Positions 5,183 to 41,658 are shown, numbered from the whole stretch's first letter. The stretch: 60,738 bases of DNA, filler included, from 4 parts of 4 records of this genome joined end to end with filler, not necessarily neighbours in it; one strand, 5' to 3'. The notes: generated by a model from the sequence alone, not told the origin. Numbers and translations are program-made.

Positions 5183-8100
5183 GTGCGAGTTTCAGATAAC
5201 AACTCGAACGACGAAAAGCAAGACGCTTTTCAGCATACGAAGCAAAAAGCTTCAGCTGGCCTGTCTCCCAGTGGCCAGAATGCGTTGCTGTACGCTGAGC
5301 AATTTGGCGCGCGCCTGCTTCCGCTTGGCATTTATGACAAAGAGAAGTCCGAGGCTGACAACAAGTGCGCGAAGCAGCCGCTGAACGTCTGCACGAAATG
5401 CGCGTGTCGCCTGCCGCCCATGAAGCAGATGGCGAAGGTGTCCTGCCGGAAATGTGGCGCTAAATACGCTCGCGGCGAGACAGGCGTCCACCTCGCGACC
5501 AGCGATCCGCAGGTGCTTACGTCGATCTGGTCGACCTTTCCGAAGGCTGGCATCGGATGGGCGATGGGACCGCAAGACGATGGCCGGGTTCTTGTTGCTA
5601 TCGACGTCGACGTCGACAAGTCGACCGGCAAGCCGTCGGAGGAGTGGCTGGCGCTGCTGGCGAAGCATGGCGAGCTTCCCATGACGTTGCGCGCCGTGAC
5701 CGGCTCTGGCGGACAGCACTATGTTTTCGAAGTCGATGCTGCAGACGCTCTGCCGAAGAACTCGGTGCGGAAGCTGGCCGATGGCGTCGATACGCGAGGA
5801 GAGGGCGGATACATCGCTGTGTTTCCGACCGTTCATCCGAATGGAAATCAGTACAAGTGGCACAAGGAAGCGCTGCCGTCCAAGACCCCCATTGCGAAGC
5901 TGCCGGAATGGCTGGCTGAGCGCCTACGGCCTGCGCCGGTCGCTGCGCCGGAGCCAGTGACCGAGAGAACGCGGAGCCTGGTCGCCGAACTTGGCGATAA
6001 CCCGCAGCTCGCAAAGAAGCTGGACGCTTATGTTACAAGTGCGCTCGACGGCGAGGTCGGCAACCTTGCTGGCCAGCAAGTGGGCGGGCGCAACGATGCG
6101 CTGAACAAGGCCGCCTTCAGGCTCGGACATTTCGTAGGCGGCGGCCTGCTGAGCCGCGCCGATGTGGAAGCACGGCTGGAAAGCGCTGCTGCCGAAAATG
6201 GGTCGTGGTCCGACGATGGACCGGCGGTCTGCAAAACGACGATTGCGAGCGGCCTGACGGCTGGCATGGCTAAGCCGATTTCGCAGGAGGAAATCGTCCA
6301 GAAGCTCACCGCGGAGGACGAGGCCAAGCGCGCCAGCAGGCAACGTCCTGCGGCGGCGAGTGTGAAGCCTGTCCCGCGTGTCGCGCGCGCTGTGGGCGAG
6401 GCCGGTGGCGCTGCTGTGGGCCAGCATGGCCAGCAGGATGTGATCGACCCGGAAACGGGTGAGGTGCTGGAGGAGGCGGCGGTGGAGCGGGTGGCTGCTG
6501 CGGTTATCCCCTTCGCCCGCCCGGGCGAGGCCGGTGGCGCAGACGCCAGCGCTGTCGACGCGTGGGACCCGTGGGCCGATGAATGGCCGTGGGACGTTCT
6601 GAATGACCGCATGAGCGCGGACGCGCGCGAACGGCTGATTGACCGGTTGGCAGAGCTGCCGTCGCACCGCCTCGCACACTGGATGGAGCACTCCAAAAAA
6701 GTTCTGGCCATGACGAAGGCGGAACTCACAAACGCGGTTCGCGCCCGCGCAGCTGCCTTCCGCAAGGCAGCGCGTGAGGCCGCCATCGCTGACAGCGAGC
6801 AGGCGCGCGACGCAGCACGCGAAGCGCGCATGGCGGCGGGTGTAAATTCCATCGTCGCTGCCGCTCCCGAGGACATCGCTGGCGTCCACGAATGGACGAC
6901 CGGCTGCGACACGCAGATCGCCGGGTGCCTCATGGCGGACTTGAACCGCTTCTATGGCCAGCAGATCGTGACCGCCGACGGCGAGGCCTACGGCTGGACC
7001 GGCGAGCGCTGGGAGCCGGTTCGTCCAGAAATCCTGCGCACGTCGATCATGCGATACAGGGGCCAGGAGCGCGGCGATGGCGAGCTGGCCATGAACCGCG
7101 CACGCATCGACGGGTCTATGAAAAACGTGTGGGACGAAACGGGGCGGCCTGGCTTCTTCACCAACGCTGCGGTCGGTCTTAATACGAAGACCGGCTTCTG
7201 GACGCTCGGGCCGGACGGCAAGCTTCGCCGGGAAGACCCGCACCCAGAACAAGCGCAGCGGCATGTCATCGACGCCGATTTCGATGGCTCGCCATTGGTC
7301 TTTGCGCCGGATGGCTCGCTACTCAACAAGTTTCTTATGGGCTGCTTTGGCAACGACGACGATTGCGCTGAGAAGATCGACCTCCTGCAGGAGATTGCAG
7401 GCTGCCTGCTGTTCGACATGACCAGCACGCTGACCAGTCCGGCTGCCATCGTGCTTTATGGCCCATCTGCAGGAAACGGGAAGTCGGAGATCATCAAGCT
7501 GCTGACCGCCATGCTGCCGAGCGATGCGCATTCGGTCGTGAAGCCTAGCCAGTTTGGTGAAGCCTTCGCTGCCGCCGGTCTGGCTGGGTCGCGCTTTAAT
7601 TTCGCTGGCGAGCTTGAGCGCCACATCATGTCAGATGCATTCAAGACGGTCGTCTCGGGCGACGAGATCAGCGCACGCGAGCCATACAAGCCGCACTTCA
7701 TCGTGAAGCCTCGTGCGCTGCATATGTTCGCCGCGAACGAGCTGCCAAGCTTCACCAACGGCATGGATCAAGGCGTCCGACGTCGCCTTCTGGTGCTGAC
7801 CTTCAACCGCTCGATCCCAATAGCTGAGCGCATCGCCAATATCGGCGAGCTAATCGCCAGCACTGAGCGAAATATCCTTGTCGCATGGGCGGTCGCTGGC
7901 GCGATCAGGCTGGCCACGCAGGGCGGCTTTACGCGACCTGCGTCCAATGCCGAGGCGATGGATGAGTGGGTCGAGATCGCAGATTCCGTTAGCGCATGGT
8001 GTCAGCATCACCTGACCGTGACCGGCGAGCAGCACGACCGAGTGACAGTAAGCGACGCTTTTGACAGCTACGAGAAGTGGTGCGACCGCGAGCGGCTGGG

Positions 8101-8230
8101 CTCAGCTAGCCGCTGCCCCAAGAACCGTTTTTCCTCGCGGGTGGTCGCGGCCCTGCAGGGTGCTGAGCGTCAGAAGAGCGGGTCGACGAGGTTTGTTCGC
8201 TGTGTGCGGATGACCACCAAAGTCGACTGA
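5183..8230 (+). CDS. Bifunctional Prim-Pol primase fused to a D5-like SF3 helicase (replication initiator)
   Basis: Prim-Pol motifs VAIDVD, TGSGGQHYVF, DTRGEGGYI..PT.HPNG..Y.W; GGRNDALN (PriCT-like); Walker A GPSAGNGKS, motif C FAANELP, RRRLLV. Confidence 0.9.
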   Translation: MRVSDNNSNDEKQDAFQHTKQKASAGLSPSGQNALLYAEQFGARLLPLGIYDKEKSEADNKCAKQPLNVCTKCACRLPPMKQMAKVSCRKCGAKYARGETGVHLATSDPQVLTSIWSTFPKAGIGWAMGPQDDGRVLVAIDVDVDKSTGKPSEEWLALLAKHGELPMTLRAVTGSGGQHYVFEVDAADALPKNSVRKLADGVDTRGEGGYIAVFPTVHPNGNQYKWHKEALPSKTPIAKLPEWLAERLRPAPVAAPEPVTERTRSLVAELGDNPQLAKKLDAYVTSALDGEVGNLAGQQVGGRNDALNKAAFRLGHFVGGGLLSRADVEARLESAAAENGSWSDDGPAVCKTTIASGLTAGMAKPISQEEIVQKLTAEDEAKRASRQRPAAASVKPVPRVARAVGEAGGAAVGQHGQQDVIDPETGEVLEEAAVERVAAAVIPFARPGEAGGADASAVDAWDPWADEWPWDVLNDRMSADARERLIDRLAELPSHRLAHWMEHSKKVLAMTKAELTNAVRARAAAFRKAAREAAIADSEQARDAAREARMAAGVNSIVAAAPEDIAGVHEWTTGCDTQIAGCLMADLNRFYGQQIVTADGEAYGWTGERWEPVRPEILRTSIMRYRGQERGDGELAMNRARIDGSMKNVWDETGRPGFFTNAAVGLNTKTGFWTLGPDGKLRREDPHPEQAQRHVIDADFDGSPLVFAPDGSLLNKFLMGCFGNDDDCAEKIDLLQEIAGCLLFDMTSTLTSPAAIVLYGPSAGNGKSEIIKLLTAMLPSDAHSVVKPSQFGEAFAAAGLAGSRFNFAGELERHIMSDAFKTVVSGDEISAREPYKPHFIVKPRALHMFAANELPSFTNGMDQGVRRRLLVLTFNRSIPIAERIANIGELIASTERNILVAWAVAGAIRLATQGGFTRPASNAEAMDEWVEIADSVSAWCQHHLTVTGEQHDRVTVSDAFDSYEKWCDRERLGSASRCPKNRFSSRVVAALQGAERQKSGSTRFVRCVRMTTKVD

Positions 8231-8620: not shown

Positions 8621-8900
8621 AGAAACCCTCAGCTCCGTATAGCAACGTTGTAGCACCGACTTTGCCGGGCAGCCTGCGAAGCGATGCGCTTTGGTTTGTG
8701 CCGGGAAGGTCGGCAGGCGGAAGCCTGGTGAGGGGCTGGCAACTGGCTGGTGAGGGAGGCGGGAAAAAGGCCGGGAAGAGACTGGTGAGGGGGAAGCCAC
8801 CCGGACCAGCTCCAAGCGTCCTGCGCACGCGCGTACCCGCGTGGCTGGCAAAAATCGGCGAATAACGATACGCAAGCGGAACGAAATCCGAGGAGCAACC

Positions 8901-9560
8901 ATGCCGACCACAGGGACAGAATCTGCGACAGAAGATCGCAAGCTGACGCAGGCCGAGCGCCGCGAGCGCAACCGGGCCGCACATTACGAGAAGCGCGCGC
9001 GCGAGGAGGCCGAGCGCAGACTTCGTGGCAAGCTGAAGTCTCGACACGCTGAGCGAGAGTACGACCGCCAGGCCGCGAAGAAGGCTGCAGAGGAAGTTCT
9101 TGCGCCGACGCCGTATCGGCAGCGCCCGGCTGTACATTATACGCCAGAGATCTGGGACGAGCTGCTAGAGCGGCTCACCAATGGCGAGAGCCTCACGGAT
9201 ATCTGCCAGATGGATCACATGCCGACCGCATCGGCGGTCTTCAAATGGGTGGCCGCCGACCCTGAGCGCGGTTTTCAATATCAGGAAGCCATGCGTGTCC
9301 GCGCCAGCCGCGACGTCGACATGCTCCTGAAGGCCGCAGTCCTCGGCACGGGCGACATCGCACGGGACCGCCTGATCGTGGAAACCCTCCGATGGGCCGC
9401 CGGGAAGCGCGACCCGCATCGCTACAGCGACAAGCTGCAGATTGCCGCTGATGTTCGCGCGCTTAATCACACGGTCGTGGAGACGAAGCTGACACCAGAC
9501 ATGTCGCCGGAGGAACTGGCGGTCAACTACGCCAAGCTGATCGGACGGGCAGATGGCTAG
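8901..9560 (+). CDS. terS: Terminase small subunit (Sf6 gp1-like)
   Basis: YTPEI.DE..ERL..GESL..IC....MP....VFKW...Y..A...RDRL.VET.RW.A.K..P.RYSDK; AGGAG RBS. Confidence 0.8.
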   Translation: MPTTGTESATEDRKLTQAERRERNRAAHYEKRAREEAERRLRGKLKSRHAEREYDRQAAKKAAEEVLAPTPYRQRPAVHYTPEIWDELLERLTNGESLTDICQMDHMPTASAVFKWVAADPERGFQYQEAMRVRASRDVDMLLKAAVLGTGDIARDRLIVETLRWAAGKRDPHRYSDKLQIAADVRALNHTVVETKLTPDMSPEELAVNYAKLIGRADG

Positions 9561-10872: not shown

Positions 10873-11406
10873 TCACTTTGGGCGCCTTATAGTCATCCGA
10901 GATTGCTTGAATCCTTCGACATAATCGACACAAGCCTCATCTCCAAATGTACTCTTGAAACATGCAGAATTTGGACCCGTACGGCGCCTTTCATGCTCAG
11001 GCTTGAATACCCCCGCTTTGGCGAGCCGCATGATCACATCCCGGGTCTCTATCGGTTGCCGCCAACCGCAACGGCTTTCACCAAGAACGTCTGCGATGGC
11101 TAGGCAGCTTAGTGCAATTTCAGTTGAGGCGCGTCGGACTTCAATGCTGGCATAACCTCCACCCCAGGAATTCTTGTATATGTTCTTGGAGCAGACGAGC
11201 TTGGCCAGACGCGGGATATTTTCATCCTGCAGCGAGCATTTGTATCCGCTTTTATTCAGGGTTGCCTCCAGCTCAGGCTCCGACATGAAGGCATTGATGC
11301 CGAGAATAGTGATCGGTTTCTCAGCACTATTTTTCTGCGCGCTGGCACCTGCTGTGGCGCCCATTATGATGACAACTCCGATCCAGAAATTCCGAATGAA
11401 TGACAT
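10873..11406 (-). CDS. Secreted cysteine-rich hypothetical protein
   Basis: Signal peptide ending ASA-Q; multiple Cys. Confidence 0.6.
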   Translation of the reverse strand: MSFIRNFWIGVVIIMGATAGASAQKNSAEKPITILGINAFMSEPELEATLNKSGYKCSLQDENIPRLAKLVCSKNIYKNSWGGGYASIEVRRASTEIALSCLAIADVLGESRCGWRQPIETRDVIMRLAKAGVFKPEHERRRTGPNSACFKSTFGDEACVDYVEGFKQSRMTIRRPK

Positions 11407-11695
11407 GTTTCTGGTTTCCTTTTGTAACTTCTGATCTGCTCCCGGTCGAATGCCCCACTGGCTTCCGTCACCTTTGCTTGACCGACAGACGACAGATCAG
11501 GTCTACTTCAGCGCGCTGCAGTCCATGCCGGTTGCCGTATCATCCCAAGGGCAAAAATCCACTTATCGAGCGACCTGAATCTGTTCAGATAAACCGAGCC
11601 ACCTCTACGACCATTCGTTCGCTTCCCCGGAATTGCTATGATATGATGGTCGCTCTCAATCGATTCAACGGATCAATTTGAAGAGAACCTATCGG

Positions 11696-12955
11696 TCACG
11701 GACTATACTGCAAAATTAGTTCGCTCAATAGGTCGTCAATACCCTGATACCGCACTAGCTGAACGGCAGGAAACATCGATTCCAGGAACATGAGGTTATC
11801 GGGAGCCTCATCCGCCAGAGCTGGTCGCTCCCTGTAAGAGATGCCCCAACCCGGCGGATCATTGCCCATATAAGTCGCAAGCGGAATTGCATCGACGGAT
11901 GAAACGCCGGCAAGGGCCTGAGCCGGAAGCGAGCCAAAAATCTTCACTGTACGGGCATCTATGAAGATAGTCAGATGCTCGGATTGTTTCGGATAGGGAT
12001 TGTTTTCCCAAGCGCTTGAAAATCCTGTCCCCGCATAGGCCAAATCAAGAAGTCGACCATCCGTCACAAGGGCCGAGGAAAATTCACCAGAGACACACAC
12101 GCCGGTAGGACATGAGAACCACGCGAGACCGTCCTTCCCGTTCTCCGGTTTCCCAAAGTGCGCCAAGTCCACAGGCGCCAAGAGATAGCAGTCAGCGGCG
12201 AGCGATCTAATGCTCAGGGGGCGGACATAACCGCCCTCATTCATGCGCCAATCTTCGTGCGACAGACACACCTGAAGAGAATTTGACGTGTAGGACCTGC
12301 CACAATGCACCTGTATTCGACAATCTGAATACTCGGCACCGAGCGCCCGCAATCCCTCAGTCAGGCTAGCAAGAAATCCTGGGGCCCATCGGATATCAAT
12401 GGAATAATCGACCAGGTCGGGATCATTGGCATTAAGGGCAAAGGTTGGCGCCGACACTTCAAGGGCACGCGATGGGAAATCCTGAAACAGAGCAGCAGCT
12501 ACTTCCGCGCGAGCCTTGCGTGAAAGCGTTTCTGCCTGCGCAGCTGCGAGAATACTATCTGAATCAATGCTTGCCCGCCCGCCCTGAACGAGACCAACAA
12601 AGTTTTTTAACCGGCTTTGAGACACATGGATATCGGCTTCAACTACAAACCACTCACCGTCTTTGTAGGTACGGACCGGAGCGAAAAAATCAACAAAGCC
12701 ATTCATTGTGCTTGAGATCTTGTCCAGCGCAAGTTCATCATCAATTACAGTTTGATTGCTGATGACCAGTTGCTGGACGGATTGCTGCATGGCCTGTCGT
12801 ATTGCGTCCTGGCGCGCAGCATAGGGCGACTGACCTTGGCCAATTACCCGCACTGGCGGCAGGGCACTTGCATTGCTTTGAGCTGCAGCTGTAAGGAACG
12901 GTGCGTAAACAGCGAGGCACAAGGCAATCAGGCACCACTTAATACTAAGGCGCAA
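11696..12955 (-). CDS. Secreted protein with N-terminal LPP20/FlgT-N-like domain
   Basis: Signal peptide; V.G.G.S...AR.DA..QA..Q.V...V.S.Q.V..D pattern. Confidence 0.55.
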   Translation of the reverse strand: MRLSIKWCLIALCLAVYAPFLTAAAQSNASALPPVRVIGQGQSPYAARQDAIRQAMQQSVQQLVISNQTVIDDELALDKISSTMNGFVDFFAPVRTYKDGEWFVVEADIHVSQSRLKNFVGLVQGGRASIDSDSILAAAQAETLSRKARAEVAAALFQDFPSRALEVSAPTFALNANDPDLVDYSIDIRWAPGFLASLTEGLRALGAEYSDCRIQVHCGRSYTSNSLQVCLSHEDWRMNEGGYVRPLSIRSLAADCYLLAPVDLAHFGKPENGKDGLAWFSCPTGVCVSGEFSSALVTDGRLLDLAYAGTGFSSAWENNPYPKQSEHLTIFIDARTVKIFGSLPAQALAGVSSVDAIPLATYMGNDPPGWGISYRERPALADEAPDNLMFLESMFPAVQLVRYQGIDDLLSELILQYSP

Positions 12956-13053
12956 GGTTCGATTCCCTATGATTTAGTACCCTTTGTGATGCTGACTGGT
13001 TACCAACATCAGGCGAACGAAGAAGAGCCTGTCTCGACTCAATCTCCCTCGGT

Positions 13054-13704
13054 TTATGGAAACGGCGAGCGTCTTCGAACCTCACTCGGCTGCGAACTGG
13101 AGCCCTGAGCTGATTTGTCGGCCTTGGCGCTGATGGATGACTGCTGGCTCGCCGGCTCGACCGTCATAGCACCTTTTGCCGACGATGCCATTGCAATGCT
13201 GGTTCGAGTTATGCCTACTTTGACCCAGGCCTCCTCCCTCACTTCATCATAACCCGCCTCAAGGATCATGACGCCGCGTAGATTGCTGCTGCTGTAGGAG
13301 CGCATGACTTCGCTGAGAGAATTAGCGAGGGTGCGCTGAGATTCCTTAGACGCACCATCATTCCCAGCCCCCTCACGCCGGATGGAAACCTGACTTGTTG
13401 CCTCAAGCTCGCTGAAAATGGTTTCGGCAGACATGTCCTGATCGAAAAACTTGACGATCTCGGCCTTGGCGCGCTGCTCGGCAATCTTTTGGGCGGTACT
13501 GATGCCGCGACGATCTGTAAATTCAACCGGCTGAAGTCCAGTTGCATATATACGGTCCCACTCACCAGACGCATCAAAATCTATCTCGATGCCCTGTAGT
13601 GGCAATTGGAATACTAGCTCCTCTGCAGTCGCTTGTGCTGGAAGGATTACTGAAGCTGCAACGGAGACCGCTGCAATGATCGTGGAAAGTCGAACTCTCA
13701 CCAC
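13054..13704 (-). CDS. Secreted LPP20-like protein
   Basis: GTG start after GAGG; signal peptide; A.K.AE.RAKAEIVKF...LRGV pattern. Confidence 0.55.
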   Translation of the reverse strand: MVRVRLSTIIAAVSVAASVILPAQATAEELVFQLPLQGIEIDFDASGEWDRIYATGLQPVEFTDRRGISTAQKIAEQRAKAEIVKFFDQDMSAETIFSELEATSQVSIRREGAGNDGASKESQRTLANSLSEVMRSYSSSNLRGVMILEAGYDEVREEAWVKVGITRTSIAMASSAKGAMTVEPASQQSSISAKADKSAQGSSSQPSEVRRRSPFP

Positions 13705-13795
13705 CTTAAAAGTCCTCTCTATCAAAACACGGAACAATAGCCTGGTTGCCTGATGAAATGTAACAGCTTGCTTGGGCACGCCATGCCTCAATTTG

Positions 13796-14245
13796 CTAAA
13801 CCCCCAACGAACAGGTTGCCTTCGGTGCGTCTCCGAATGTTTCAACAAATTCGCCGTCTTCGGCCAACACTACTTTGTTCGCAAACCTTGGGCGAACATG
13901 ACCTTCTTCGACGACATATGGCAGCGGTCCGGAGCGGATATGCTCTTGCCCAGACAAATCCAGTATACGTGCAGTGACTTCGAGCACGCCTTTTGCAGAA
14001 TCGCTTCCAGCTGCAATCAACTCGCCACTTTGGGCAAGGGCATCCCAATCAATATCCACGAAAATATTGAGGTATCCGTTCCCCGTGGTTCGCCCGACAG
14101 ACCAAGTCACGCTGCATTTGGGGCCCCGCCAATCCGTTGCGTCAGTTGTCTGATCGCCAGCGCCAATCGAACCGCCACACGCCGAAAAAGCAAAGGCGCT
14201 GATGAGCGATACAAGTGGGAGCATGAACGGAACATTTTTCATCAA
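13796..14245 (-). CDS. Lipoprotein, hypothetical
   Basis: Lipobox-like FSAC after a hydrophobic signal. Confidence 0.6.
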   Translation of the reverse strand: MMKNVPFMLPLVSLISAFAFSACGGSIGAGDQTTDATDWRGPKCSVTWSVGRTTGNGYLNIFVDIDWDALAQSGELIAAGSDSAKGVLEVTARILDLSGQEHIRSGPLPYVVEEGHVRPRFANKVVLAEDGEFVETFGDAPKATCSLGV

Positions 14246-14282
14246 TGATCCCTTCTGATCTTGAGCAGGTTTGCCCTCCGGA

Positions 14283-14597
14283 TCAGCCCTTCATTGAATC
14301 GCGAATTGATCGGGCGGCTTCAATACTCTTACCACGGGCAACGCCGCCGATCAGAAACATGTCGACCAGCACCCAGATGCCAAATCCGCCCAAACTGATC
14401 AGCTTGAGAATTCCAAGCAGGGTCTGTCCAACATAGAAGCGGTCAATTCCGAGGCTACCCAACCAGGCATTGAAGCCGAATGCCAAAACCGGGTTCTTTT
14501 CCCTTTCGGAAAAGATAGAAGAGAAATCGGAGCGCCGATCTTCGGGGATGCTCAGATAGATCGACATCAATTCACGAGTGTAGGCCTTGCGATTCAT
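14283..14597 (-). CDS. TM2-domain membrane protein
   Basis: KNPVLA.....LG.LGIDRFY.G....GILKL..LGG.GIW..VD is the TM2 signature; GAGAGGA RBS. Confidence 0.85.
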   Translation of the reverse strand: MNRKAYTRELMSIYLSIPEDRRSDFSSIFSEREKNPVLAFGFNAWLGSLGIDRFYVGQTLLGILKLISLGGFGIWVLVDMFLIGGVARGKSIEAARSIRDSMKG

Positions 14598-14779
14598 TGG
14601 TGGTTTCCTCTCATAAAGAGGGGAGCCGGCTCTTTTTCCCATCCGACATCAACCCACCCATATGGGGTAGATGGGGTAATCATCCCATTTTTAGGCGGCC
14701 GGATTCTTAGACTTTACGCGGCAAGTATCAGTTTAATGGCGGGGGCAGACCAACTGATGCGCCACTTGCAATTTACGCC

Positions 14780-16258
14780 ATGCTGCTCCTTATGAACCAA
14801 CGAGTGCATTGGGTCGGGAGACGCTGGCAGGTGGTTGTTGAAGCTCTGAAAAAACTGTTTCGGCCTCGGCATGATTATCTCCCGGGCGTGCAGGTTTTCA
14901 GTCCGATTGACGTGAACCGCATCAAGGACGAAATGAAGCTCGTTCAGCGTGGAAAAGAGGACGGCAGCAACGAGGTGCCGGCTTCAGATGCCACGGGCCT
15001 TTCGGGCGCGGAAATCGAAATCGTGCGCAAGTGCGAGAACTGGCGGGGAACGGCGCTGGCTGAGGCGCGCCAAACGATGGAGGTCTATACCAGCCGTCTC
15101 ACGACCGGCATGCAGGGGCTCCAACTGGCGCAACTGCGGCCTATGGCGCAGGAAGCGACATACGACCTTCAGCAGGTGGCCGAGGAAGAGATCGGCGAGC
15201 TGTCGGAGCCTATTCTGGAAGTCAAGCGCCGGCGCGCGGATTTCGATCTCTTCCGGTCCCAGCAGAAGATTCCGCGCGCGCCGCATCCGGAGGCCAGTTT
15301 CTGGCGTACTGCGATGATCGTCTCGCTCGTCGCTCTAATCGAAGTGGCCGGGAACTCGTTCTTCTTTGCCGATGCCGGGAACCAGTTCGGTATCCTCGGG
15401 GCCGTGGTGGAAGCGGTCGTGATCCCGATTGCGAATATCGGCGTCGCGACGCTGCTGGTCTTCTTCGGGGTCCGGCAATTGTGGCGGCGGGAATGGACGC
15501 GCAAATTTGTCGGCCTGCTCGCCTTGCTGGCATTCATCGGTTTTGCCGTGGGATTCAACCTCGCGGTCGCGCATTATCGGGATGGGTTGGGCGTTGCCGG
15601 TCATGATACGGCATCGGCCTACGCGCTCGGCACGCTGACCACGACGCCTTTCAAGCTGGAAAGCCTGACCTCCTGGCTGTTGTTTTGTCTCGGTGTTCTG
15701 GTGACGGTCGTGACGCTTTACGAAGTCATAAGTTTCCGCGATCCGATCCCCGGATACTCGCGGGTGGAGCGCCGGCGCAGCGATGCGGTTGCCGCCTTCA
15801 ACAATGCCCGGATCGATGCAATCGGCGGGATCCAGTCGCAATATGACGACCGGCGGGACGAGCTGGTGAAGTTGCGCCGCAGGCTGGCTGAAACCATGGC
15901 AGATGCCTCCCTGATGTCGGAGCGTGTGGATCACCTGCAGAAGGACCTCGATGAATACCAGAACTATCTGGCGCTGACTGCTCATGAACTGAGCGAGACC
16001 TATCGCGAGAACAACCGGCACAGCAGGCAATCTCCTCCGCCGAACCATTTCAGCCAGCCGATCTGGTACCCGGAGGACATGAGAATCGAATTGGCGGCCC
16101 TGAATGCCTTCAAGAACGAACTGGCCGAGCTGCAGTCGTTGGAGGACGGGAAGGATATTCTCGAAACAGGGCTCAACAATCTGAACGTTGCGTTGGATGA
16201 AAATTTGGAGCGCATCAAGGTGCTTGCCGACATTGAAGAGATGGAGCCGCCGCGATGA
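14780..16258 (+). CDS. Four-TM membrane protein with N- and C-terminal coiled coils (operon gene 1)
   Basis: Four hydrophobic helices with embedded polar residues (IEVAGNSFF, NLAVAHYRD), followed by DPIPGY; heptad-rich flanks. True start may be the GTG near 14830. Confidence 0.75.
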   Translation: MLLLMNQRVHWVGRRWQVVVEALKKLFRPRHDYLPGVQVFSPIDVNRIKDEMKLVQRGKEDGSNEVPASDATGLSGAEIEIVRKCENWRGTALAEARQTMEVYTSRLTTGMQGLQLAQLRPMAQEATYDLQQVAEEEIGELSEPILEVKRRRADFDLFRSQQKIPRAPHPEASFWRTAMIVSLVALIEVAGNSFFFADAGNQFGILGAVVEAVVIPIANIGVATLLVFFGVRQLWRREWTRKFVGLLALLAFIGFAVGFNLAVAHYRDGLGVAGHDTASAYALGTLTTTPFKLESLTSWLLFCLGVLVTVVTLYEVISFRDPIPGYSRVERRRSDAVAAFNNARIDAIGGIQSQYDDRRDELVKLRRRLAETMADASLMSERVDHLQKDLDEYQNYLALTAHELSETYRENNRHSRQSPPPNHFSQPIWYPEDMRIELAALNAFKNELAELQSLEDGKDILETGLNNLNVALDENLERIKVLADIEEMEPPR

Positions 16259-17079
16259 GCCGGCGAAACCGTGACCGGCGGCGCAGACCCCGTAAGAAAG
16301 ATAGCCAGCTTCTATACATCATCCTGACAGGTGTTTTCGTCCTCAGCATCTTCGGCATGGTGGGCGGCAGCGTTTACTTGCGCCAGTCTCAGGAAGCGGT
16401 GGACGAGGTCACGCTATGCCCGGAGCGGGCGCCAGAGCGGGCCTTTGTCGTGCTCGTTGATGTGTCGAGCCCGATCAATGCCGTCCAGCAGCAATCGATC
16501 CTGAACCAGGTGGAGAAACTGAAATCGCGGCTGCGCGCCGGTGATAAGCTGATGCTGTATGCGCTGGAGCCGACGTCTGACCTTCTGAAACCACGGCTGA
16601 CGATGTGCCGGCCGAAGTCCGGCCAGGAAGTCAGCAGCCTGACGGGCGATCAGAAGTCGGCAGGCCAGCTGTTCAAGGACCGGTTCGAAACGCCGTTCGA
16701 GGCAATGGCGAGGGACCTGCTTGAGGCAAAGCCGGCGAAGTCATCGCCCATCATGCGCGGCGTGCAGGCGGCGGTCGTCAGCGGTTTCGGCGCGCTGCCG
16801 GACACGACGGACAAGCACCTTATCGTCGTTTCGGATATGCTGGAGTTCGACGGGGGACGGTCGCACTACGACAGTTCCAACCCTCCGGATGCCGCGGACC
16901 TGGACGGTCCCGGCTATGCGTCCCTCTTTGCCGATATGCGCGGCGTGGATGTGGAGGTCTGGTACGTTCAGCGCCCGGGTGACGAGACACATCAGGGTAT
17001 TGCGCACGTCGCATTCTGGGAAGCTTTCTTCGCGAAAAGCGGCGGCGCGCTGGTCCGCGTCTACAAGGTTGAGGGATAG
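16255..17079 (+). CDS. Membrane-anchored vWA-like domain protein (operon gene 2)
   Basis: Basic N-terminus, one TM, then VVLVDVSS (MIDAS-like), SPI and LIVVSDMLE; ATGA coupling. Confidence 0.7.
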   Translation: MSRRNRDRRRRPRKKDSQLLYIILTGVFVLSIFGMVGGSVYLRQSQEAVDEVTLCPERAPERAFVVLVDVSSPINAVQQQSILNQVEKLKSRLRAGDKLMLYALEPTSDLLKPRLTMCRPKSGQEVSSLTGDQKSAGQLFKDRFETPFEAMARDLLEAKPAKSSPIMRGVQAAVVSGFGALPDTTDKHLIVVSDMLEFDGGRSHYDSSNPPDAADLDGPGYASLFADMRGVDVEVWYVQRPGDETHQGIAHVAFWEAFFAKSGGALVRVYKVEG

Positions 17080-17087
17080 GTCCGGCG

Positions 17088-18140
17088 ATGGCGCTTTCAA
17101 AAGCACAGGAAGTCTCGCGCTCGCCGAACCGCAGCCAGGACCGGACGGGGAAGTGGGCTTTTGCCGTGTTCGCGGCCTTCGGCCTGGGCGTGATTATCCT
17201 CATCGAGGCGACCAATTCGCCGAAGCTGTTCTCGATGTCGATCTGCGCGGCGCTGATGATCACCTATGCCGGGCTGACATATGTGATGCCGGCCATGCGG
17301 GCACGTGCGGACCAGATCGGTGACAATGTCTATTATCTCGGGCTGCTGTACACGCTGCTGAGCCTTGCGGCCTCAATCGTCCGCCTGGCGGATGATCCGA
17401 ATGCGGCCGAAGCGATCCTTCGCAATTTCGGTATCGCGCTGGTGACGACAATCCTTGGTATCACGTTGCGCGTGATCATCTCCCAGATGCGCGACGACCC
17501 GGTCGACATCGAACGTGAGACGAGAGCCACCCTGCTGGAGGCGACGCGCCAATTCCGCGAGGAGTTGCAGCAAAGCGCCACCGAGATGCGCCACTTCCAT
17601 CTTTCGCTGCGCCAGCGCGTTGAGGAAACTGTCGAGGAGAGCCTTAAGACCCTAAAGGGCGGATTCGACGAAGTCACGAAGCTCGACGGCGTCATGACGT
17701 CTTTTGCCGAGACGATCCGGAAGACGGCCGAAGCTGGCCAGCGGATTGACGCCTCCGTCAGATCGTTTGAAGAAAATTCCGGCGCGCTTGAAACGATCAA
17801 CCAGCAACTCACGGAATTGGCGAAGTCCCTGGAAGGGTCGAATGTCGCCGTTGCTCGGTTCAAGTCTCAATTCGGCGACATCGGTAGCGAATTGACCGGT
17901 TCCATCGGCAAGGGGCTCGGCGAAGCCTATGCGACAAGTGCTAAGGCGAGCGCCGACGTGGCCAAGGCGCTGGAGCAGCTGCGCGGCAGCGTCAAGGAGC
18001 TGGATGAGCTTTCCAGGTCGCTGGCCAAAACGGGCAAGGCGTTCACCAGCGAGTTCGGAGAGACACGCGAGACCATCGCGAAGGTGCGGGAAGAGCTGGC
18101 GGACCTCGCCCAGTATATCCTGAAGCGGCTTGAGGCATGA
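17088..18140 (+). CDS. MotA/TolQ/ExbB(ZorA)-like channel protein with long helical tail (operon gene 3)
   Basis: YYLGLLYTLLSL and FGIALVTTILG resemble the LG..GT and AL.TT..G pore helices; about 215-aa heptad-rich C-terminal tail. Confidence 0.65.
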   Translation: MALSKAQEVSRSPNRSQDRTGKWAFAVFAAFGLGVIILIEATNSPKLFSMSICAALMITYAGLTYVMPAMRARADQIGDNVYYLGLLYTLLSLAASIVRLADDPNAAEAILRNFGIALVTTILGITLRVIISQMRDDPVDIERETRATLLEATRQFREELQQSATEMRHFHLSLRQRVEETVEESLKTLKGGFDEVTKLDGVMTSFAETIRKTAEAGQRIDASVRSFEENSGALETINQQLTELAKSLEGSNVAVARFKSQFGDIGSELTGSIGKGLGEAYATSAKASADVAKALEQLRGSVKELDELSRSLAKTGKAFTSEFGETRETIAKVREELADLAQYILKRLEA

Positions 18141-18141
18141 G

Positions 18142-19179
18142 GTGGCGGAGCTAATCAACGACCAGCGCCAGGCATACCGACGGGGACTCATCCTGGGCTT
18201 CACGGTTGCCGAAGCGTTGCTGCTCATCCTGTTCGGATTGCTGCTGGCGCTCGGCTCCATCCTAGTCAAGGTCAAGGATCGCGAGGAGGCGCAACAGAGG
18301 GAACTGGACGAAGCCAATCTGAAGCTCGCGGCCTATGCCTATCTCGAACCGGAGATCGCCCTGCTGCGTGGCCGCACAACGAATGATTTCTTCCGCGAAC
18401 TCGGGATCCTCAAGGTCGAGAACGACTCGCTGCGGCTGGAAGTGAAGCAGCTTCAGACGCAGCTTGTCGAAACCGAAATAGTTTCAGACATCGCCAAGGC
18501 CGCAAAAGCGGAGAAGACCACACCGGAGGCACTGCGCAAGGCGGCGGCGCGAGGCCAACTGGTGGACGGCGTCTTCGGCGAAGAGTTTGAAATTGAGAAG
18601 GTCGAGCGGGTCCTCGAAATCGCGAAGCAGATCGACGAGGCGATCCCTGCGGAGGAAGGCGAAAAGCTGGAGGCGCTCTCCAATCTGGAAGGCCTCTCGG
18701 CAGACCTTGCCAAGAAGGAAAAGGAGAACCGGGACCTCAAGGCCCAGGTGACGAACGCGACCCGCCGCCTGGAGCAACAGGGGCTCGGCAAGCTGGCCTG
18801 CTGGGCGATGGATGCCGGCACGCCGGACTATCTGTTCGATGTGGCATTGCTCAGCAATGGCATCCGCGTGCGCAATTCGGTGCGGGCAGAGCGGCTTGAG
18901 GACTACAAATCCCTGCCGATTGCGTCCTCCCTGTACGGACGCACGTTGTCGCCGGCTGAATTCCGCGATGCGACCCATGATCTTTATGAGTATTCCGAGG
19001 CGCGGGACTGCCGCTTTTTCGTGAGGGTCTACGACTTCACCGCGGCAAACCAGAAGGTGATCTACAAACGGAATCTCAGCACCGTGGAGGGACATTTCTA
19101 CAAGTATGAAATGACAAACCCCCTCTCTTGGGGACCAGAGGCGCAGAATTGGGTCCAGACGGCGGCGATGAAACCATGA
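18142..19179 (+). CDS. MotB/ExbD(ZorB)-like single-TM protein with long coiled coil (operon gene 4)
   Basis: One N-terminal TM with an intramembrane acidic residue (GFTVAEALLLILF); coiled coil; C-terminal domain with two Cys; GTG start just after the upstream stop; no OmpA motif seen. Confidence 0.55.
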   Translation: MAELINDQRQAYRRGLILGFTVAEALLLILFGLLLALGSILVKVKDREEAQQRELDEANLKLAAYAYLEPEIALLRGRTTNDFFRELGILKVENDSLRLEVKQLQTQLVETEIVSDIAKAAKAEKTTPEALRKAAARGQLVDGVFGEEFEIEKVERVLEIAKQIDEAIPAEEGEKLEALSNLEGLSADLAKKEKENRDLKAQVTNATRRLEQQGLGKLACWAMDAGTPDYLFDVALLSNGIRVRNSVRAERLEDYKSLPIASSLYGRTLSPAEFRDATHDLYEYSEARDCRFFVRVYDFTAANQKVIYKRNLSTVEGHFYKYEMTNPLSWGPEAQNWVQTAAMKP

Positions 19180-19432
19180 CACCCCCATGCGGAAGAGGTG
19201 ATCTGTCATGAGCTCCAGTACTAAATCCTTGAGGCGTGCGATCAGGCAGATACGCCACGCCGGTCGGTCGCGTGCCGATCGCATTTTCAGGACACCTAGG
19301 CAGTCCATGATTCAGCGTTTGCTTAGTTGGTCGCGGCGCTTGTTGCGGCGTCGCTGACCAGGTCATTGTCAGAGTAGGAATTGTCAGACTAACGGGCCTT
19401 TAGGAGGTGATTTCGGAGGCGTAGCACTGCGA

Positions 19433-19854
19433 AATCACCCAATCAGCTTTCCGCTACGTCAAAACCTCGCCCGAGAGCATCCGGCTTGCGGTCATGATCT
19501 ATGTTCGATTTCCGCGGTTATTGGGGAAAGTTGAAGACCTGCTCCAGGAACGCGGGATCGACGTCTGCCACGAAACAGTCCGCCACTGGGTTGACCGTTT
19601 CGGCACTTACTTCGCGCACATGATCCGCAAACGCCGATCTGAAAGAATGAGACAATCGCCGCATTGGCAGTGGCACCTGGACGAGGTGTTCATAAGCCGA
19701 AGGCAGGCGACGCCAACGTCCGTGGGCTGACTCACTATTTATGGCGTGTGGTCTATCATGAAGGCGAATTCTTGGAGTCGTTTGTGACAGAGATACGCGA
19801 CAAGGCTTCAGCAATGGAATTTTTACGAACAGCCATAAAGAGGAACGACCGGCG
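19433..19854 (+). pseudogene. IS6-family transposase remnant (frameshifted, truncated)
   Basis: YVRFP...VEDLL.ERGID.CHETVR.WV.RFG...WHLDEVF, continued in another frame by HYLWR.V.HEGE.LES.VT..RD...A. Confidence 0.85.
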
Positions 19855-21165
19855 TCACTTCGCAGCGAAGGCCGGTCGCAGTGGCGTGACATTGGAGCCT
19901 GCGCCAGCGTCTCCTTCGCGCACCAGCTGCGCAAGGTATTCGAGCGCGTGGCGACGCTGTTTCAGGAAGCTGAAGCTCGTGTACGTCGAGAAGGTGATGC
20001 CCGTTGGCTGGTGACCCAGAAGCGCGGGCGCAATGGCTGGCTCTACGTCGCGTGCCAGCAGGATGTTTAGCCCGGTGGCGCGCAGCCGGTGCAGTGTCGC
20101 TTCGTTGTCGATGCCTGCGCGTTTTTTCGCACGGCTGTAGGCCTTGCTGATGGCACTGGGTGTCAGCGCCTCACCGCCTATGGACGGAGACGGGAAGACA
20201 TAAGTTTGCGCGCCATCGTGGCGAGCGCGGTGCCCGCTGTCCAGCTCGCGCTGGATGATTGCGTAAGCGTCGCCGCTGAGTGGCACGCGGTCCTCGCGGC
20301 GTTTCTTCACCCGCTCGGGCGGGATGACCCAAACCGGTTCGCCGTCGACCATTTCGATTTCACTCATGCGGATGCCAGCAATTTCACCTGCGCGCTTGAG
20401 CGTCAGGGCTGCGAGGCGAACAGCGTTCAGCGTGGTCGGGTGGCTGCGACGGCTGTTGCTAGTGTCGCTGGCCAGCCATTCTGCCTCCATTTCGTCGAGC
20501 GCGGCGAACAGGGCTCGCAGCTCGTCGAGACTGAGGGCTGTCGCCTTGGGCTTCTCGGTGGTCTTCTCTGCATTCTTGAGAGCGTTTGGGTTCACGCTCT
20601 TGAAGAGCGGGCCAAGCGTGCTGACCAAACGATTGTGCGACGTCGGCGCTCGCTCGGCGAGTGGGACCAGGATGGCGTCGACCTGCGCTGGCGTGACGCT
20701 TTCGATGGCCAGCCCCGCGATTGGGCCGCAGTGCTTTTTGAACTGCCATTTCAGATCGGTGAGATATTTCTCTGACCGCTTTTTGCGCTTCAGCTTTTTG
20801 ATGTGACGGTCGAAGTGGGCTTGGACCGTATCGACACGCTCGTCAGGAGGGGTGAGCGCTGCCTTGCGCTCTGCGGCAGGGTCGATGCCTTTCGCGACCT
20901 GGGCTTTCAGTTCGTGGACGCGCTCGCGGGCGGCCTTGAGGGTGATCTGGCTAGCTTCCTTTCCGTATTCGCCGAGCGCGATGCTGCGCTGTTTTCCGTG
21001 CAGGCTGTAGCGGAACAAAAACGAGCGGCTCCCGCTGGCGTGAACACGCAGGACGAGGCCTCGCAGCGACTTGTCGGAGTAGTCCTTGGCTTTCGCCCCC
21101 TCCGCCGGTCCGGGCAGCGTCCGGATTTGCGAGTCCGTCAGTCCAGTTTTCATCTTTTGTCCCAT
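19855..21165 (-). CDS. int: Tyrosine integrase with P4-type arm-binding domain
   Basis: N-terminal GL.LRV..SG.RSF.FRY...GK.R...LG.Y...L..AR...GIDP; catalytic R (KRAGEI), HRLR, LGH and Y. Confidence 0.92.
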   Translation of the reverse strand: MGQKMKTGLTDSQIRTLPGPAEGAKAKDYSDKSLRGLVLRVHASGSRSFLFRYSLHGKQRSIALGEYGKEASQITLKAARERVHELKAQVAKGIDPAAERKAALTPPDERVDTVQAHFDRHIKKLKRKKRSEKYLTDLKWQFKKHCGPIAGLAIESVTPAQVDAILVPLAERAPTSHNRLVSTLGPLFKSVNPNALKNAEKTTEKPKATALSLDELRALFAALDEMEAEWLASDTSNSRRSHPTTLNAVRLAALTLKRAGEIAGIRMSEIEMVDGEPVWVIPPERVKKRREDRVPLSGDAYAIIQRELDSGHRARHDGAQTYVFPSPSIGGEALTPSAISKAYSRAKKRAGIDNEATLHRLRATGLNILLARDVEPAIAPALLGHQPTGITFSTYTSFSFLKQRRHALEYLAQLVREGDAGAGSNVTPLRPAFAAK

Positions 21166-21182
21166 CCAAATTTTAACGCGAT

Positions 21183-21203
21183 GCGTGCAGTTTGCGTGCA
21201 GTT
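21183..21203 (+). repeat. Second copy of the GCGTGCAGTTTGCGTGCAGTT arm-type repeat
   Basis: Identical to 102-122. Confidence 0.75.
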
Positions 21204-21351
21204 TTTGCGTTGGTACCGCTTGATTCTTTTTGCGCCGATTGCGCCGGAAGCGCAACAGGAAAACTCGTCAAAACGCTGTATTTATTGAGAAAAAGAAGTT
21301 TTCCCGAAAATCCGATCGGCAGGATTGGCGCACGGGGAAATACAGGTGCAA

Positions 21352-21385: not shown

Positions 21386-21485
21386 NNNNNNNNNNNNNNN
21401 NNNNNNNNNNNNNNNNNNNNNNNNNNNNNTTAATTAATTAANNNNNNNNNNNNNNNNNNNNNNNNNNNNNNNNNNNNNNNNNNNN
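21386..21485. other. Artificial contig linker
   Basis: N-run, TTAATTAATTAA, N-run; 100 nt. Confidence 0.99.
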
Positions 21486-39548: not shown

Positions 39549-39648
39549 NNNNNNNNNNNNNNNNNNNNNNNNNNNNNNNNNNNNNNNNNNNNTTAATTAA
39601 TTAANNNNNNNNNNNNNNNNNNNNNNNNNNNNNNNNNNNNNNNNNNNN
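39549..39648. other. Artificial contig linker
   Basis: N-run, TTAATTAATTAA, N-run. Confidence 0.99.
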
Positions 39649-39649
39649 A

Positions 39650-40324
39650 AGCGTCTACAAATCTAGGGGCACCTCAGTTGGACTGAGCCGGGCAGTGACC
39701 GATCTGCTGGATCTGTACGGCATCAGCTACAACAGCAGCACCAGCCTGGCGCTGAAGATTGTGCGGCTTGTATTCGTCGGCAAGGGTCGCGAGACCAAGA
39801 TCGCCAATCGCGCGTACACCTACACCCGTGTTCTTACCGTTGCAGCTGAAGCGGGCATCACAGGCGAACAGCTACCTCAGTTCATCACTGACAACAACGG
39901 CATCGACGAACTGCGTCGCCAAGACAAAGACGGCCAAACTGACACGCAGAAGGCCAAGCGTGCTCGTGACTATGCTGAAGCAGCCCTGGTTAACCAAAAC
40001 ACTGTCGCGGCCGTGGCGATGACGGATGAGCTGCAGCCCGCCGATGGCGCTCGCTACAGCTTAGCTCTGGTTCGCAAAAACGAGGACGGCTCTGGCAGCA
40101 TTGTGTTCGGGACCAACAACCAAGCCGCAGTGAACACTGTGCTGACCCTCGCAGGCAAAGCACTGAAAGAACGTGCTGCACAAGCTGTCGAGCAGAATGT
40201 TGCAAAGCACGACGCTGAACAGCGTGCTGAGAATACAGAACGACTAGCACAGGAATTGTTGTCCACTAGCTTCGAGCCGCAGGTGCAGGTCAACGTGCCT
40301 GAAACGGAACAAGCGTCCGTTTAA
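39650..40324 (+). CDS. Hypothetical protein, 5'-truncated by the contig edge
   Basis: Frame is open back to the contig start. Confidence 0.7.
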   Translation, partial: SVYKSRGTSVGLSRAVTDLLDLYGISYNSSTSLALKIVRLVFVGKGRETKIANRAYTYTRVLTVAAEAGITGEQLPQFITDNNGIDELRRQDKDGQTDTQKAKRARDYAEAALVNQNTVAAVAMTDELQPADGARYSLALVRKNEDGSGSIVFGTNNQAAVNTVLTLAGKALKERAAQAVEQNVAKHDAEQRAENTERLAQELLSTSFEPQVQVNVPETEQASV

Positions 40325-40395
40325 TCCAGAGCAATGCAGCAGGCAGAAATTCAGCTGTCTGCTAACCCCCATCATTTTCATTGAAAGGAAAGAAC

Positions 40396-41106: not shown

Positions 41107-41246
41107 TGGAAGTGCCGCCTGATCTTATCATGCGTAAAGCCGATGAACATTTGCCAGAGGCAAAGGCTGACCGGTTCAAGGCGTTGTGGCAGCAGCTGAA
41201 TATGTCTCAACAAATGCTAATCGTTTTAACGCTGCATAACAGCTGA
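41106..41246 (+). CDS. Small hypothetical protein (46 aa)
   Basis: TAATG coupling to the ATPase gene. Confidence 0.4.
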   Translation: MEVPPDLIMRKADEHLPEAKADRFKALWQQLNMSQQMLIVLTLHNS

Positions 41247-41313
41247 AAGAAAGTGTCGCTGGTGAAAATCGGCGATACATCCCCTTCCCGCATCACAATA
41301 GGAGAACAGCACC

Positions 41314-41637
41314 ATGTACATGGATACCGTACTGCGCCTTTTTAATATCGATCGGCTGGTCACTGATCGCGTGTTTAAAGCATTAGAGCGGCAAGAACAG
41401 ATCGATGACTTGCAAGACTGGTACGACAGCTTCAGCCCGTTTCCCATGCTGCAAGAATTGGCAGCAACTGACTTCAAAGCTGCTGTAGAAGCCGCGGCAC
41501 TGACGCAAATGACAGACGCCGAGTATACGGGATTTCGTCGTCAATGGCATCAATTGGACCCTGCCCAGCAACGTAAGTACCTGTGCGAGCTTGCTGGACT
41601 ACCAGAGTCTGAGCGCGACAGAGATTTCGACGTATAA
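41314..41637 (+). CDS. Hypothetical protein
   Basis: AGGAG RBS; followed by a terminator. Confidence 0.7.
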   Translation: MYMDTVLRLFNIDRLVTDRVFKALERQEQIDDLQDWYDSFSPFPMLQELAATDFKAAVEAAALTQMTDAEYTGFRRQWHQLDPAQQRKYLCELAGLPESERDRDFDV

Positions 41638-41658
41638 GCGAAGTCTTTGAACACCATG

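Follow-up and report, generated by a model that had tools for sequence, protein, structure and literature searches.

A widespread four-gene membrane cassette with a putative stator pair, carried on a satellite-like element

The four-gene operon

The window analysed here is a stretch of 60,738 bases in which four contigs are joined by N44-TTAATTAATTAA-N44 linkers (at 21386-21485, 39549-39648 and 50468-50567); features on opposite sides of a linker are not to be read as neighbours in the genome. Its first contig (contig A, 1-21385, cut at both ends) carries four consecutive genes between positions 14780 and 19179, here designated g1 to g4 and together called the cassette, which encode an orphan protein with four transmembrane (TM) helices, a membrane-anchored protein with a predicted vWA fold, and the putative A and B subunits of a stator-type motor (Table 1).

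The initial annotation of the window, made from the sequence alone, had reported four tightly coupled genes whose products are all membrane proteins, and both parts hold. The stop of g1 and the start of g2 share an ATGA, g2 and g3 are separated by an 8-nt gap, and the TGA stop of g3 (18138-18140) is followed, after a single base, by the GTG of g4 at 18142; a hydropathy script finds TM helices in each of the four proteins. The closest homologues of g4 begin at the same GTG (alignment A2). A promoter and terminator scan of 14400-19600 returned nothing on the plus strand, with fewer sites than in shuffled sequences. As the initial annotation had anticipated, the operon matches no named defence system: PADLOC, which was applied to the operon proteins only, finds no system for the four, and a Pfam scan of 27 open reading frames (ORFs) of contig A detected no helicase, HNH or other nuclease domain. 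Full-text searches of the literature found no description of the cassette, the supplements of PMC12204202 and PMC11946911 lying outside the search, and none is given in the available parts of PMC12632615 and PMC12505986.

Table 1. Features of contig A, with positions counted from the first base of the window
Feature	Position	Strand	Basis
g1, 492 aa	14780-16258	+	ORF
g2, 274 aa	16255-17079	+	ORF
g3, 350 aa	17088-18140	+	ORF
g4, 345 aa from GTG 18142 or 349 aa from TTG 18130	to 19179	+	ORF
Prim-Pol/DUF5906 primase, replication gene	5183-8230	+	PF09250 and PF19263; PHROGs set phrog_1156/phrog_1482 (primase and TerS-like genes jointly)
Small-terminase-like gene (TerS), packaging	8841-9560	+	PF20901; PHROGs set phrog_1156/phrog_1482 (primase and TerS-like genes jointly)
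Secreted-looking ORF	11696-12955	-	no family match
Secreted-looking ORF	13054-13848	-	no family match
Lipoprotein-like ORF	13796-14245	-	no family match
TM2-domain protein	14283-14642	-	TM2 family match
Insertion sequence (IS) transposase fragments, IS6/IS240-type, between operon and integrase	19494-20014	+	PF13610 DDE_Tnp_IS240, E 4.5e-10 on ORF 19664-20011
Tyrosine integrase of the carrying element	19855-21255	-	PF13356 Arm-DNA-bind_3 and PF00589; phrog_1 integrase
tRNA-like sequence (T-arm GGTTCGAGTC), clipped by contig end	21320-21385	+	direct reading

Conservation and distribution

Related loci were drawn from four sources: 25 genome loci seeded with g3 (contigs from one genome per species), 20 genome loci seeded with g1, three IMG/VR contigs and 80 metagenome contigs, 128 in total. 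All four genes are found at 19 of the g3-seeded loci, the others being cut by contig ends (four) or lacking a detectable g1-g2 (L016 and L017), and at 13 of the g1-seeded loci, where one further locus has g1-g3, five have g1-g2 only and one has g1 only. The three IMG/VR contigs have all four, as do 35 of the metagenome contigs; the order is never broken in the latter, and the remainder appear truncated at contig ends (these were not checked singly). No inverted gene order was seen among the fetched loci. Judged from sequence, positions 14780-19179 make up one operon of four genes, an arrangement far beyond chance because the same four genes recur in the same order, g1-g2-g3-g4, at 70 of the 128 loci fetched elsewhere. 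The initial annotation had treated the four as one unit, and this survey of homologue neighbourhoods bears it out. The composition of the cassette suggests two linked pairs, g1-g2 and g3-g4, which are seldom found apart from each other.

The g3-seeded loci belong to Alphaproteobacteria of many orders, including Pelagibacteraceae, and to two Longimicrobiales. The nearest relatives of the window genes are 83-97% identical to them. At E<=1e-3 a g1 profile matches 3935 representative clusters, of which 2045 remain at E<=1e-30; among 401 sampled genomes of one class the gene is present in 22, as a single copy in each, and it is carried on 24 plasmid records, always as a "hypothetical protein" or unannotated. 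Plasmid pRL11 of Rhizobium johnstonii 3841 (L171, NC_008384.1 285192-290347; RL_RS31080-RL_RS31100) has the full cassette together with a convergent thermonuclease gene; RefSeq calls its g1-g3 products "hypothetical protein" and its g4 product "OmpA family protein", and a PBP1A gene lies just upstream.

Two variants of the arrangement were also observed. At L165 (1-5477) a second g1 lies about 1.8 kb downstream of g2-g3-g4 on the same strand, which may represent two cassettes in tandem. The lone g1-g2 pairs are distant relatives (L082:7512-9961 and L084:7590-10063, and also L078, L083 and L087); those of L082 and L084 adjoin an alpha/beta hydrolase gene and a type ISP or type III restriction system.

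The predicted stator subunits

The hydropathy profile of g3 has TM helices at residues 24-42, 83-101 and about 112-134 and a weaker one at 49-69, for three to four in all. Residues 83-134 make up a hairpin with the signature of the PF01618 family -- G-x-x-G-T in one helix and A-L-x-T-T-x-x-G in the other, with a conserved Thr in each -- and are followed by a C-terminal tail, also helical, that is about 215 aa long. Both motif helices picked out by the initial annotation are present, LGLLYT at residues 84-89 and ALVTTILG at 117-124; G85, T89, T121 and G124 within them are invariant in 21 of 21 relatives, and D75, D79, Y82, Y83 and R128 are likewise invariant in these 21 sequences. The invariant D75-Q-x-G-D79-N-x-Y-Y stretch precedes the hairpin, and no counterpart of it was recognised. 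The annotated tail is also there; for its proposed heptad, or coiled-coil, nature the sole basis is a large number of weak matches to coiled-coil families. A PADLOC match to ZorA1 (E 2e-7) is confined to this tail (residues 130-344).

A word-indexed search yielded 35 relatives of g3, and 15 of them have a precomputed PF01618 match; these 15 are 324-aa proteins, 24-26% identical. The homologue from a Pelagibacteraceae genome (G004) scores 26.8 bits against PF01618, above the cut-off, and those of the four other searched genomes gave no PF01618 match at E<=0.01. When a profile of the g3 TM region built from the 21 sequences was aligned by hhalign with 14 canonical ExbB, TolQ and MotA proteins from the same genomes, the alignment (P 0.0015) fell on the G..GT and A..TT..G columns, T89 and T121 matching the two pore Thr. 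In the Atlas, MotA/TolQ/ExbB is the one family with a name that lies near a g3 homologue (score 0.88), a weak pointer to be taken as a lead only; the g3 of the window, searched alone against PDB sequences, produced coiled-coil noise only. On these alignments g3 reads as a genuine but very divergent member of the MotA/ExbB/TolQ family.

From a short N-terminus in the cytoplasm, the g4 product crosses the membrane once and continues in the periplasm as a helical stalk (about 150 aa) that bears a head (about 130 aa). No other part of the cassette is as well conserved as the N-terminal module of g4, YRRGLxLGxTxAExxLLxLF, and the Glu within the TM helix (Glu24 counted from the GTG, Glu28 from the TTG) is invariant in 34 of 34 and 21 of 21 sequences. 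Aligned by hhalign with 11 ExbD, TolR and MotB proteins encoded beside the canonical A genes, the module gave P 0.0089 over 18 columns, with the invariant Glu falling on the invariant Asp of those proteins and F on F; where a strict definition of a B subunit asks for an invariant TM Asp, g4 has an invariant Glu. The gene lies directly 3' of the A-subunit gene g3, in an order found at every locus that has both. The single TM helix with an embedded Glu and the lack of an OmpA motif, both described in the initial annotation, are confirmed, the latter by Pfam and by a hidden Markov model (HMM) of our own, neither of which finds OmpA in the g4 of the window. The same annotation's pairing of g3 and g4 as MotA/B- or ZorA/B-like also stands, on the PF01618 signals and hhalign result for g3 and on the Glu-on-Asp alignment and the OmpA- or TolR-like heads of g4.

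The head of g4 in the window has two invariant Cys and was modelled with a predicted local distance difference test (pLDDT) score of 91. Foldseek found no match to the model in the PDB at E<=1e-3. Among 48,161 PDB representatives its best match is E. coli TolR (Z 5.5, below the tool's own caution line), and a second TolR (Z 4.7) and ExbD (Z 3.6) are in the top 11; the predicted likeness to TolR is weak and only suggestive. Relatives have an OmpA-like head instead, PF00691 being above its cut-off in one of five scanned with Pfam (L007). Counted with our own HMMs, the heads at genome loci are TolR-like in 23 cases, OmpA-like in 8 and OmpA plus SNase in 1, those at metagenome loci 27, 17 and 2, and those of IMG/VR 0, 3 and 0, respectively. 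Close relatives of the window g4 were not confirmed in the metagenome contigs. A complex of four g3 (residues 1-150) and two g4 (residues 1-62), which is not the 5:2 assembly, was predicted with ESMFold2 from the sequences with no supplied alignments and gave ipSAE values of 0.21 and 0.18 against a mark of 0.34.

The partner proteins g2 and g1

The g2 product begins with an Arg-rich cytoplasmic N-terminus (9 K/R), followed by one TM helix (residues 19-37) and a domain placed in the periplasm because of that topology. An alignment of 22 sequences (A3) has C55, D69, C118, P120, S164, P165 and D194 invariant, and the two invariant Cys fit a periplasmic location. Sequence-family searches of Pfam (including its vWA models), NCBIfam and PADLOC gave no match. 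The structural model (pLDDT 83.5) had 157 Foldseek matches in the PDB at E<=1e-3, led by integrin I/vWA domains (E about 5e-6) and bacterial BatB-type proteins; VIA aligned 159 of its residues with the bacterial vWA protein 4fx5 (Z 12.8, root-mean-square deviation 2.8), and the best 50 rows (Z 12.8-11.4) are all vWA-type domains. By its model, g2 is a membrane-anchored protein of vWA fold, in agreement with the vWA partner named in the initial annotation, which had also noted motifs resembling the metal-ion-dependent adhesion site (MIDAS) behind a TM anchor. These too are present: D69 is invariant, residue 71 is either Ser or Thr throughout the aligned rows shown, the fifth position varies, and the invariant S164 and D194 stand at the expected later positions. 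The motif is MIDAS-like but not canonical.

In g1, a cytoplasmic N-terminal region of about 175 aa leads into four TM helices within residues 178-318, and the last 170 aa or so are helical and again cytoplasmic. N192, N219, N260, H265, R267, D321, Y408, N412, R416 and P421 are invariant and E188 nearly so (alignment A8), which gives the TM core a set of conserved polar residues (E188, N192, N219, N260, H265 and R267). No family model in Pfam, NCBIfam, PADLOC or PHROGs matches it, none of 12 sampled relatives has a Pfam domain, and in the Atlas it falls in unnamed clusters of its own. The 4-TM coiled-coil protein of the initial annotation is supported, and on such searches g1 is an orphan inner-membrane family. 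The possibility that g1 is a second MotA-like subunit was rejected, since hhalign gave P 0.23 for it with ExbB/TolQ/MotA and P 0.018 with g3 over 12 columns.

Nuclease partners

A nuclease gene adjoins the cassette at about half of the loci with good flanks. Most are of the staphylococcal nuclease (SNase) type, lying in divergent orientation upstream or else downstream, the others belonging to the S1-P1, PLD, Endonuclease_NS and metallo-beta-lactamase plus LTD (MBL+LTD) types. The g3-seeded set has SNase at 12 loci (L001, L003-L007, L010, L011 and L019-L022), S1-P1 at L002 and MBL+LTD at L023 and L024; the g1-seeded set has SNase at L073, a fragment at L071, PLDc_2 at L072 and a fusion at L068; and in IMG/VR a nuclease is found at L089 and L090. 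Fourteen of the metagenome loci have SNase, and among the 23 with at least 1 kb on both sides it is adjacent, overlapping or fused in 12, with two SNase genes overlapping the g4 stop by 4 nt. At metagenome loci that lack SNase, an Endonuclease_NS gene was found at L109 and a fragment at L114. The Endonuclease_NS of L109 and the PLDc_2 of L072 take the same position as SNase.

Fusions of g4 and SNase were found three times (L068:11370-12833, L116:2829-4217 and L117:5206-6594), laid out as the N-terminal TM module of g4, the stalk, an OmpA-like domain and a C-terminal SNase domain. All ten of the SNase neighbours examined have a hydrophobic N-terminus that, judged by eye, is like a signal peptide. 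No functional clue from the comparison of sequences is stronger than the fusion and the occurrence of five unrelated families of secreted, non-specific nuclease in one position; a predicted extracytoplasmic nuclease is a frequent fifth component of the cassette family, sometimes fused to g4.

The copy in the window is different. An SNase HMM finds no SNase or remnant of one in contig A (best E 2.7), and an IS fragment lies 3' of g4, where many relatives carry the nuclease gene. The statement in the initial annotation that there is no recognisable nuclease is correct for this copy and does not extend to the family, where an adjacent or fused nuclease is frequent. Because of this frequent fifth component, the cassette is closer in its logic to Zorya than the initial annotation had allowed.

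The carrying element and the neighbourhoods

Contig A also encodes helix-turn-helix regulators, and neither Pfam (27 ORFs) nor PHROGs (29 ORFs) finds a capsid, portal or tail family in its 21.4 kb. With an integrase, a Prim-Pol primase, a TerS-like gene and no structural genes, it is by gene make-up likely a satellite resembling P4 or the phage-inducible chromosomal islands, as the initial annotation had held; "satellite" is said here only as likely because the contig (21,385 bases) is cut at both ends. The tRNA-like sequence at its end is a likely integration site of the element. ARAGORN made no call on it, and its last 18 bases are not repeated anywhere in the window as a second attachment site.

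The minus-strand region 5' of the operon (10873-14642) has a lower G+C content, about 0.53, and its genes were not seen next to the cassette at other loci. The third contig of the window (39649-50467) has a G+C content of 0.45-0.51, compared to about 0.59 in the other contigs, and may derive from a different replicon or a foreign island.

Integrases, IS elements or prophage edges lie beside the cassette in the window and at L003, L015, L069, L072, L089, L090 and L115, and serine recombinases, prophage regulators and plasmid partition genes flank many other loci. Defence genes were found within about 5 kb at 7 of 25 g3-seeded loci, 7 of 20 g1-seeded loci and 6 of 27 flank-scanned metagenome loci that lack SNase. 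At L074 (6917-16507) the cassette sits inside a type III CRISPR-Cas locus, with Cas6 upstream and Cas_NE0113 and Cas10 downstream, and at L010 it is near Thoeris, TIR-SLOG and PD-(D/E)XK genes. Elsewhere the neighbours are REase-ARP (L001), Mrr/ResIII (L019 and L020), type I, type ISP and type III restriction-modification (RM) systems (L079, L082 and L084), GmrSD (L085), AbiEii (L070), BrnTA (L002), MazF (L012) and HNH (L011 and L073); L148 also belongs to the loci with RM, Mrr, GmrSD, AbiEii or toxin-antitoxin genes nearby.

Proposed mechanism and alternatives

That the four genes form a conserved envelope cassette built on a stator appears very probable. The motor-like reading of g3 and g4 is sound as sequence comparisons go, and a role in defence is plausible on the same kind of comparison, strengthened by the nuclease link. 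The full statement -- an unnamed and widespread envelope machine on a divergent stator of the 5:2 type, with a Zorya-like role in defence against incoming DNA -- we would put at a probability of roughly 0.5.

In such a machine, g3 would be the A subunit, presumably a pentamer, and g4 the B subunit, presumably a dimer, the two together forming a proton or ion channel in which the invariant Glu of g4 would be the ion-binding site, flanked by Thr89 and Thr121 of g3. From the membrane, g4 would project its coiled-coil stalk through the periplasm toward the wall, tipped by a disulfide-stabilised TolR-like head in the copy of the window and, in other members, by one that is OmpA-like and binds peptidoglycan. 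At the periplasmic face of the inner membrane, g2 would place a vWA domain that takes its ligand in a metal-dependent manner through the MIDAS-like site. On the cytoplasmic side, the coiled-coil tail of g3 and two coiled-coil arms of g1 would link the motor to g1, in which the polar TM core probably serves as the output. A disturbance of the envelope would let the g4 head engage the wall, upon which the motor would be turned by the flow of ions; the partner nuclease would cut DNA that is exposed in the periplasm, giving protection against the DNA of phages or mobile elements. The copy in the window, which has no nuclease gene, would rely on g1 and g2 alone or on a nuclease encoded elsewhere.

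A number of observations weigh against this reading. Those that concern the motor are the score of the window g3 against PF01618, which is below threshold (16.4 bits against a cut-off of 22.9, E 0.0076, residues 76-128); the hhalign probability of 17% for g3 against ExbB/TolQ/MotA; a search of the g3 TM-region profile against PDB sequences in which nothing was significant and the best MotA-type match was 8vvn_C at E 0.26; the low Z of the g4 head against TolR; and the Glu of g4, the corresponding residue being, to our knowledge, Asp in all characterised B subunits. The four genes are not strictly obligate, because pairs of them occur singly, g1-g2 without a detectable g3-g4 at 5 of 20 loci and g3(-g4) without g1-g2 at 2 of 25. 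As to defence, g1 has no match in 50,697 phage genomes, a nuclease gene is missing beside the window copy and at roughly one in two well-flanked loci, and many loci lie among ordinary metabolic or envelope genes (L004-L006, L017, L018, L075, L077, L080, L081, L083, L086, L087, L104 and L141), with ordinary surroundings at about a third overall; any enrichment of defence genes near the cassette is an impression rather than a statistic. A further difficulty is the access of a periplasmic nuclease to DNA inside a phage conduit.

A bolder form of the defence reading can be offered only tentatively, and we think it rather improbable: that the cassette represents a new class of periplasmic immunity, in which the ion-driven rotary stator would sense a breach of the envelope while the vWA protein, as a catcher, and the 4-TM protein, as output, would bring a non-specific nuclease, tethered or fused to the wall-binding arm of the stator, onto phage or plasmid DNA before it reaches the cytoplasm, with self and non-self told apart by compartment alone.

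The same stator machine might instead have a housekeeping-type role in the envelope with no part in immunity, either in the uptake or scavenging of extracellular DNA as a nutrient, with a periplasmic nuclease and a motor that transduces energy as in Ton, or in a Tol-like function at the wall and outer membrane with the vWA protein as force transducer. In favour are the partner nucleases, all of their families being secreted and non-specific, and the presence of the cassette at five loci of the streamlined Pelagibacteraceae (L019-L022 and L025), with SNase beside each where the flank allows; on the other hand, no nucleoside or phosphate transporter is conserved beside it. A housekeeping role is also suggested by the PBP1A gene next to the cassette on pRL11, by M23 peptidase genes near it at L104 and L141, by core-like flanks at many loci and by the proposal that inner-membrane-tethered vWA proteins beside TolQR-like motors act as force transducers (PMC12204202, in its available part); g2, however, has neither the SHLS/His motif nor the long linker of those transducers. 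A TonB-dependent receptor, a neighbour that the initial annotation had named as speaking against its own reading, lies within about 5 kb at just 4 of the 128 loci (L012, L018, L083 and L144) and is never adjacent. Since the distribution is patchy and single-copy (22 of 401 genomes), carriage is on a satellite-like island, on plasmids and at prophage edges, and defence genes are frequent nearby, we regard a housekeeping role as unlikely.

Also to be considered is abortive infection or exclusion in which DNA is not cut, the envelope signal causing the motor or g1 to dissipate the membrane potential or to block an injection channel, with the nuclease optional. Membrane proteins borne by prophages and satellites that block injection are well known and count in favour of this, as do the missing nuclease of the window copy and of about half of its relatives, the conserved polar TM core of g1 and the lone g1-g2 pairs next to RM systems at L082 and L084. 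Yet no pore-former or holin family was matched above its cut-off, and the recurrence of non-homologous nucleases in a single position, along with their fusion to g4, speaks for the cutting of DNA as central where they are present; this alternative seems quite unlikely.

That g3 is a holin-like or other membrane protein rather than a motor, in an operon for lysis or release of the mobile element, would account for a sub-threshold match of its residues 51-136 (17238-17495) to PF23778, "Putative phage holin family 2" (22.2 bits against a cut-off of 32), and for the precomputed PF23778 matches of three g3 homologues -- a family that may itself hold MotA-like hairpins rather than holins -- and is highly improbable, given that most loci are outside phages and the 50,697 phage genomes have none, that g3 has the PF01618 signature with both conserved Thr, that it is accompanied by a B-type partner with OmpA-like heads, and that no endolysin is conserved beside the cassette.

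Relation to known systems

The defence reading is best viewed against Zorya, in which ZorA and ZorB form a 5:2 proton motor whose cytoplasmic tail recruits the ZorC/ZorD nuclease (PMC11946911, in the part available). Among known systems the cassette would, by analogy, work most like this one. As in Zorya, an A subunit with a MotA/ExbB-type TM hairpin continues into a long helical cytoplasmic tail (g3), a B subunit has one TM helix with an acidic residue (essential in Zorya) and a periplasmic head (in relatives one predicted to bind peptidoglycan), a nuclease is a partner, and the genes are located in defence islands and on mobile elements. Yet it is not recognised as Zorya, since the ZorA and ZorB models miss the motor parts, PADLOC placing ZorA on the tail of g3 only and assigning g4 to no family. 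The differences that the initial annotation had listed from Zorya I-III are borne out: no ZorC-G was found in the Pfam scan of the 27 ORFs, the acidic residue of g4 is an invariant Glu rather than Asp, and there is an extra vWA partner, the companions of the motor being this periplasmic protein and the 4-TM protein in place of ZorC-G. Further, the g3 tail has about 215 aa, compared to several hundred residues in the 70-nm tail of ZorA (as given in the available part of PMC11946911); g4 has a long stalk where ZorB has almost no linker; and the nuclease of the cassette has a putative signal peptide and would be periplasmic, whereas that of Zorya is cytosolic.

With MotAB, ExbBD and TolQR the cassette shares the order of A gene and then B gene, a pair of conserved Thr residues within the TM hairpin, a B-subunit helix whose acidic residue never varies, and a periplasmic head that is OmpA-like or, weakly, TolR-like. 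It differs from them in the sub-threshold PF01618 score of the window g3, in having Glu for Asp and a cytoplasmic coiled-coil tail, in lacking flagellar, TonB/TolA or Pal partners, and in its patchy, accessory distribution.

For g2 the nearest comparison is with the inner-membrane vWA proteins noted computationally in 2025 beside TolQR-like motors and proposed as force transducers (PMC12204202). Like these, g2 is a TM-anchored periplasmic vWA protein encoded directly beside TolQ/ExbB-like genes. Unlike them, as far as they are described in the available part of that paper, its TM helix has no SHLS/His motif or indeed any conserved residue (22 sequences), the linker from helix to domain is only about 15-20 residues and is not proline-rich, and there is no Asp-bearing trans-pore helix, the B subunit being a separate protein, g4.

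What distinguishes the cassette from any described system is its set of partners: an orphan 4-TM protein, a membrane-tethered vWA protein and a presumably periplasmic nuclease, in some cases fused to the B subunit. Ion-driven 5:2 motors power flagella, the Ton and Tol systems, gliding and Zorya, a group that the cassette would extend by an accessory member that is widespread and has novel partners. Should it serve in defence, foreign DNA would be discriminated by compartment, with no need for sequence or modification marks. The cassette is within reach of experiment, in a five-gene version on pRL11 of the model strain Rhizobium johnstonii 3841, and its study would test how motors of the stator type sense damage to the envelope.

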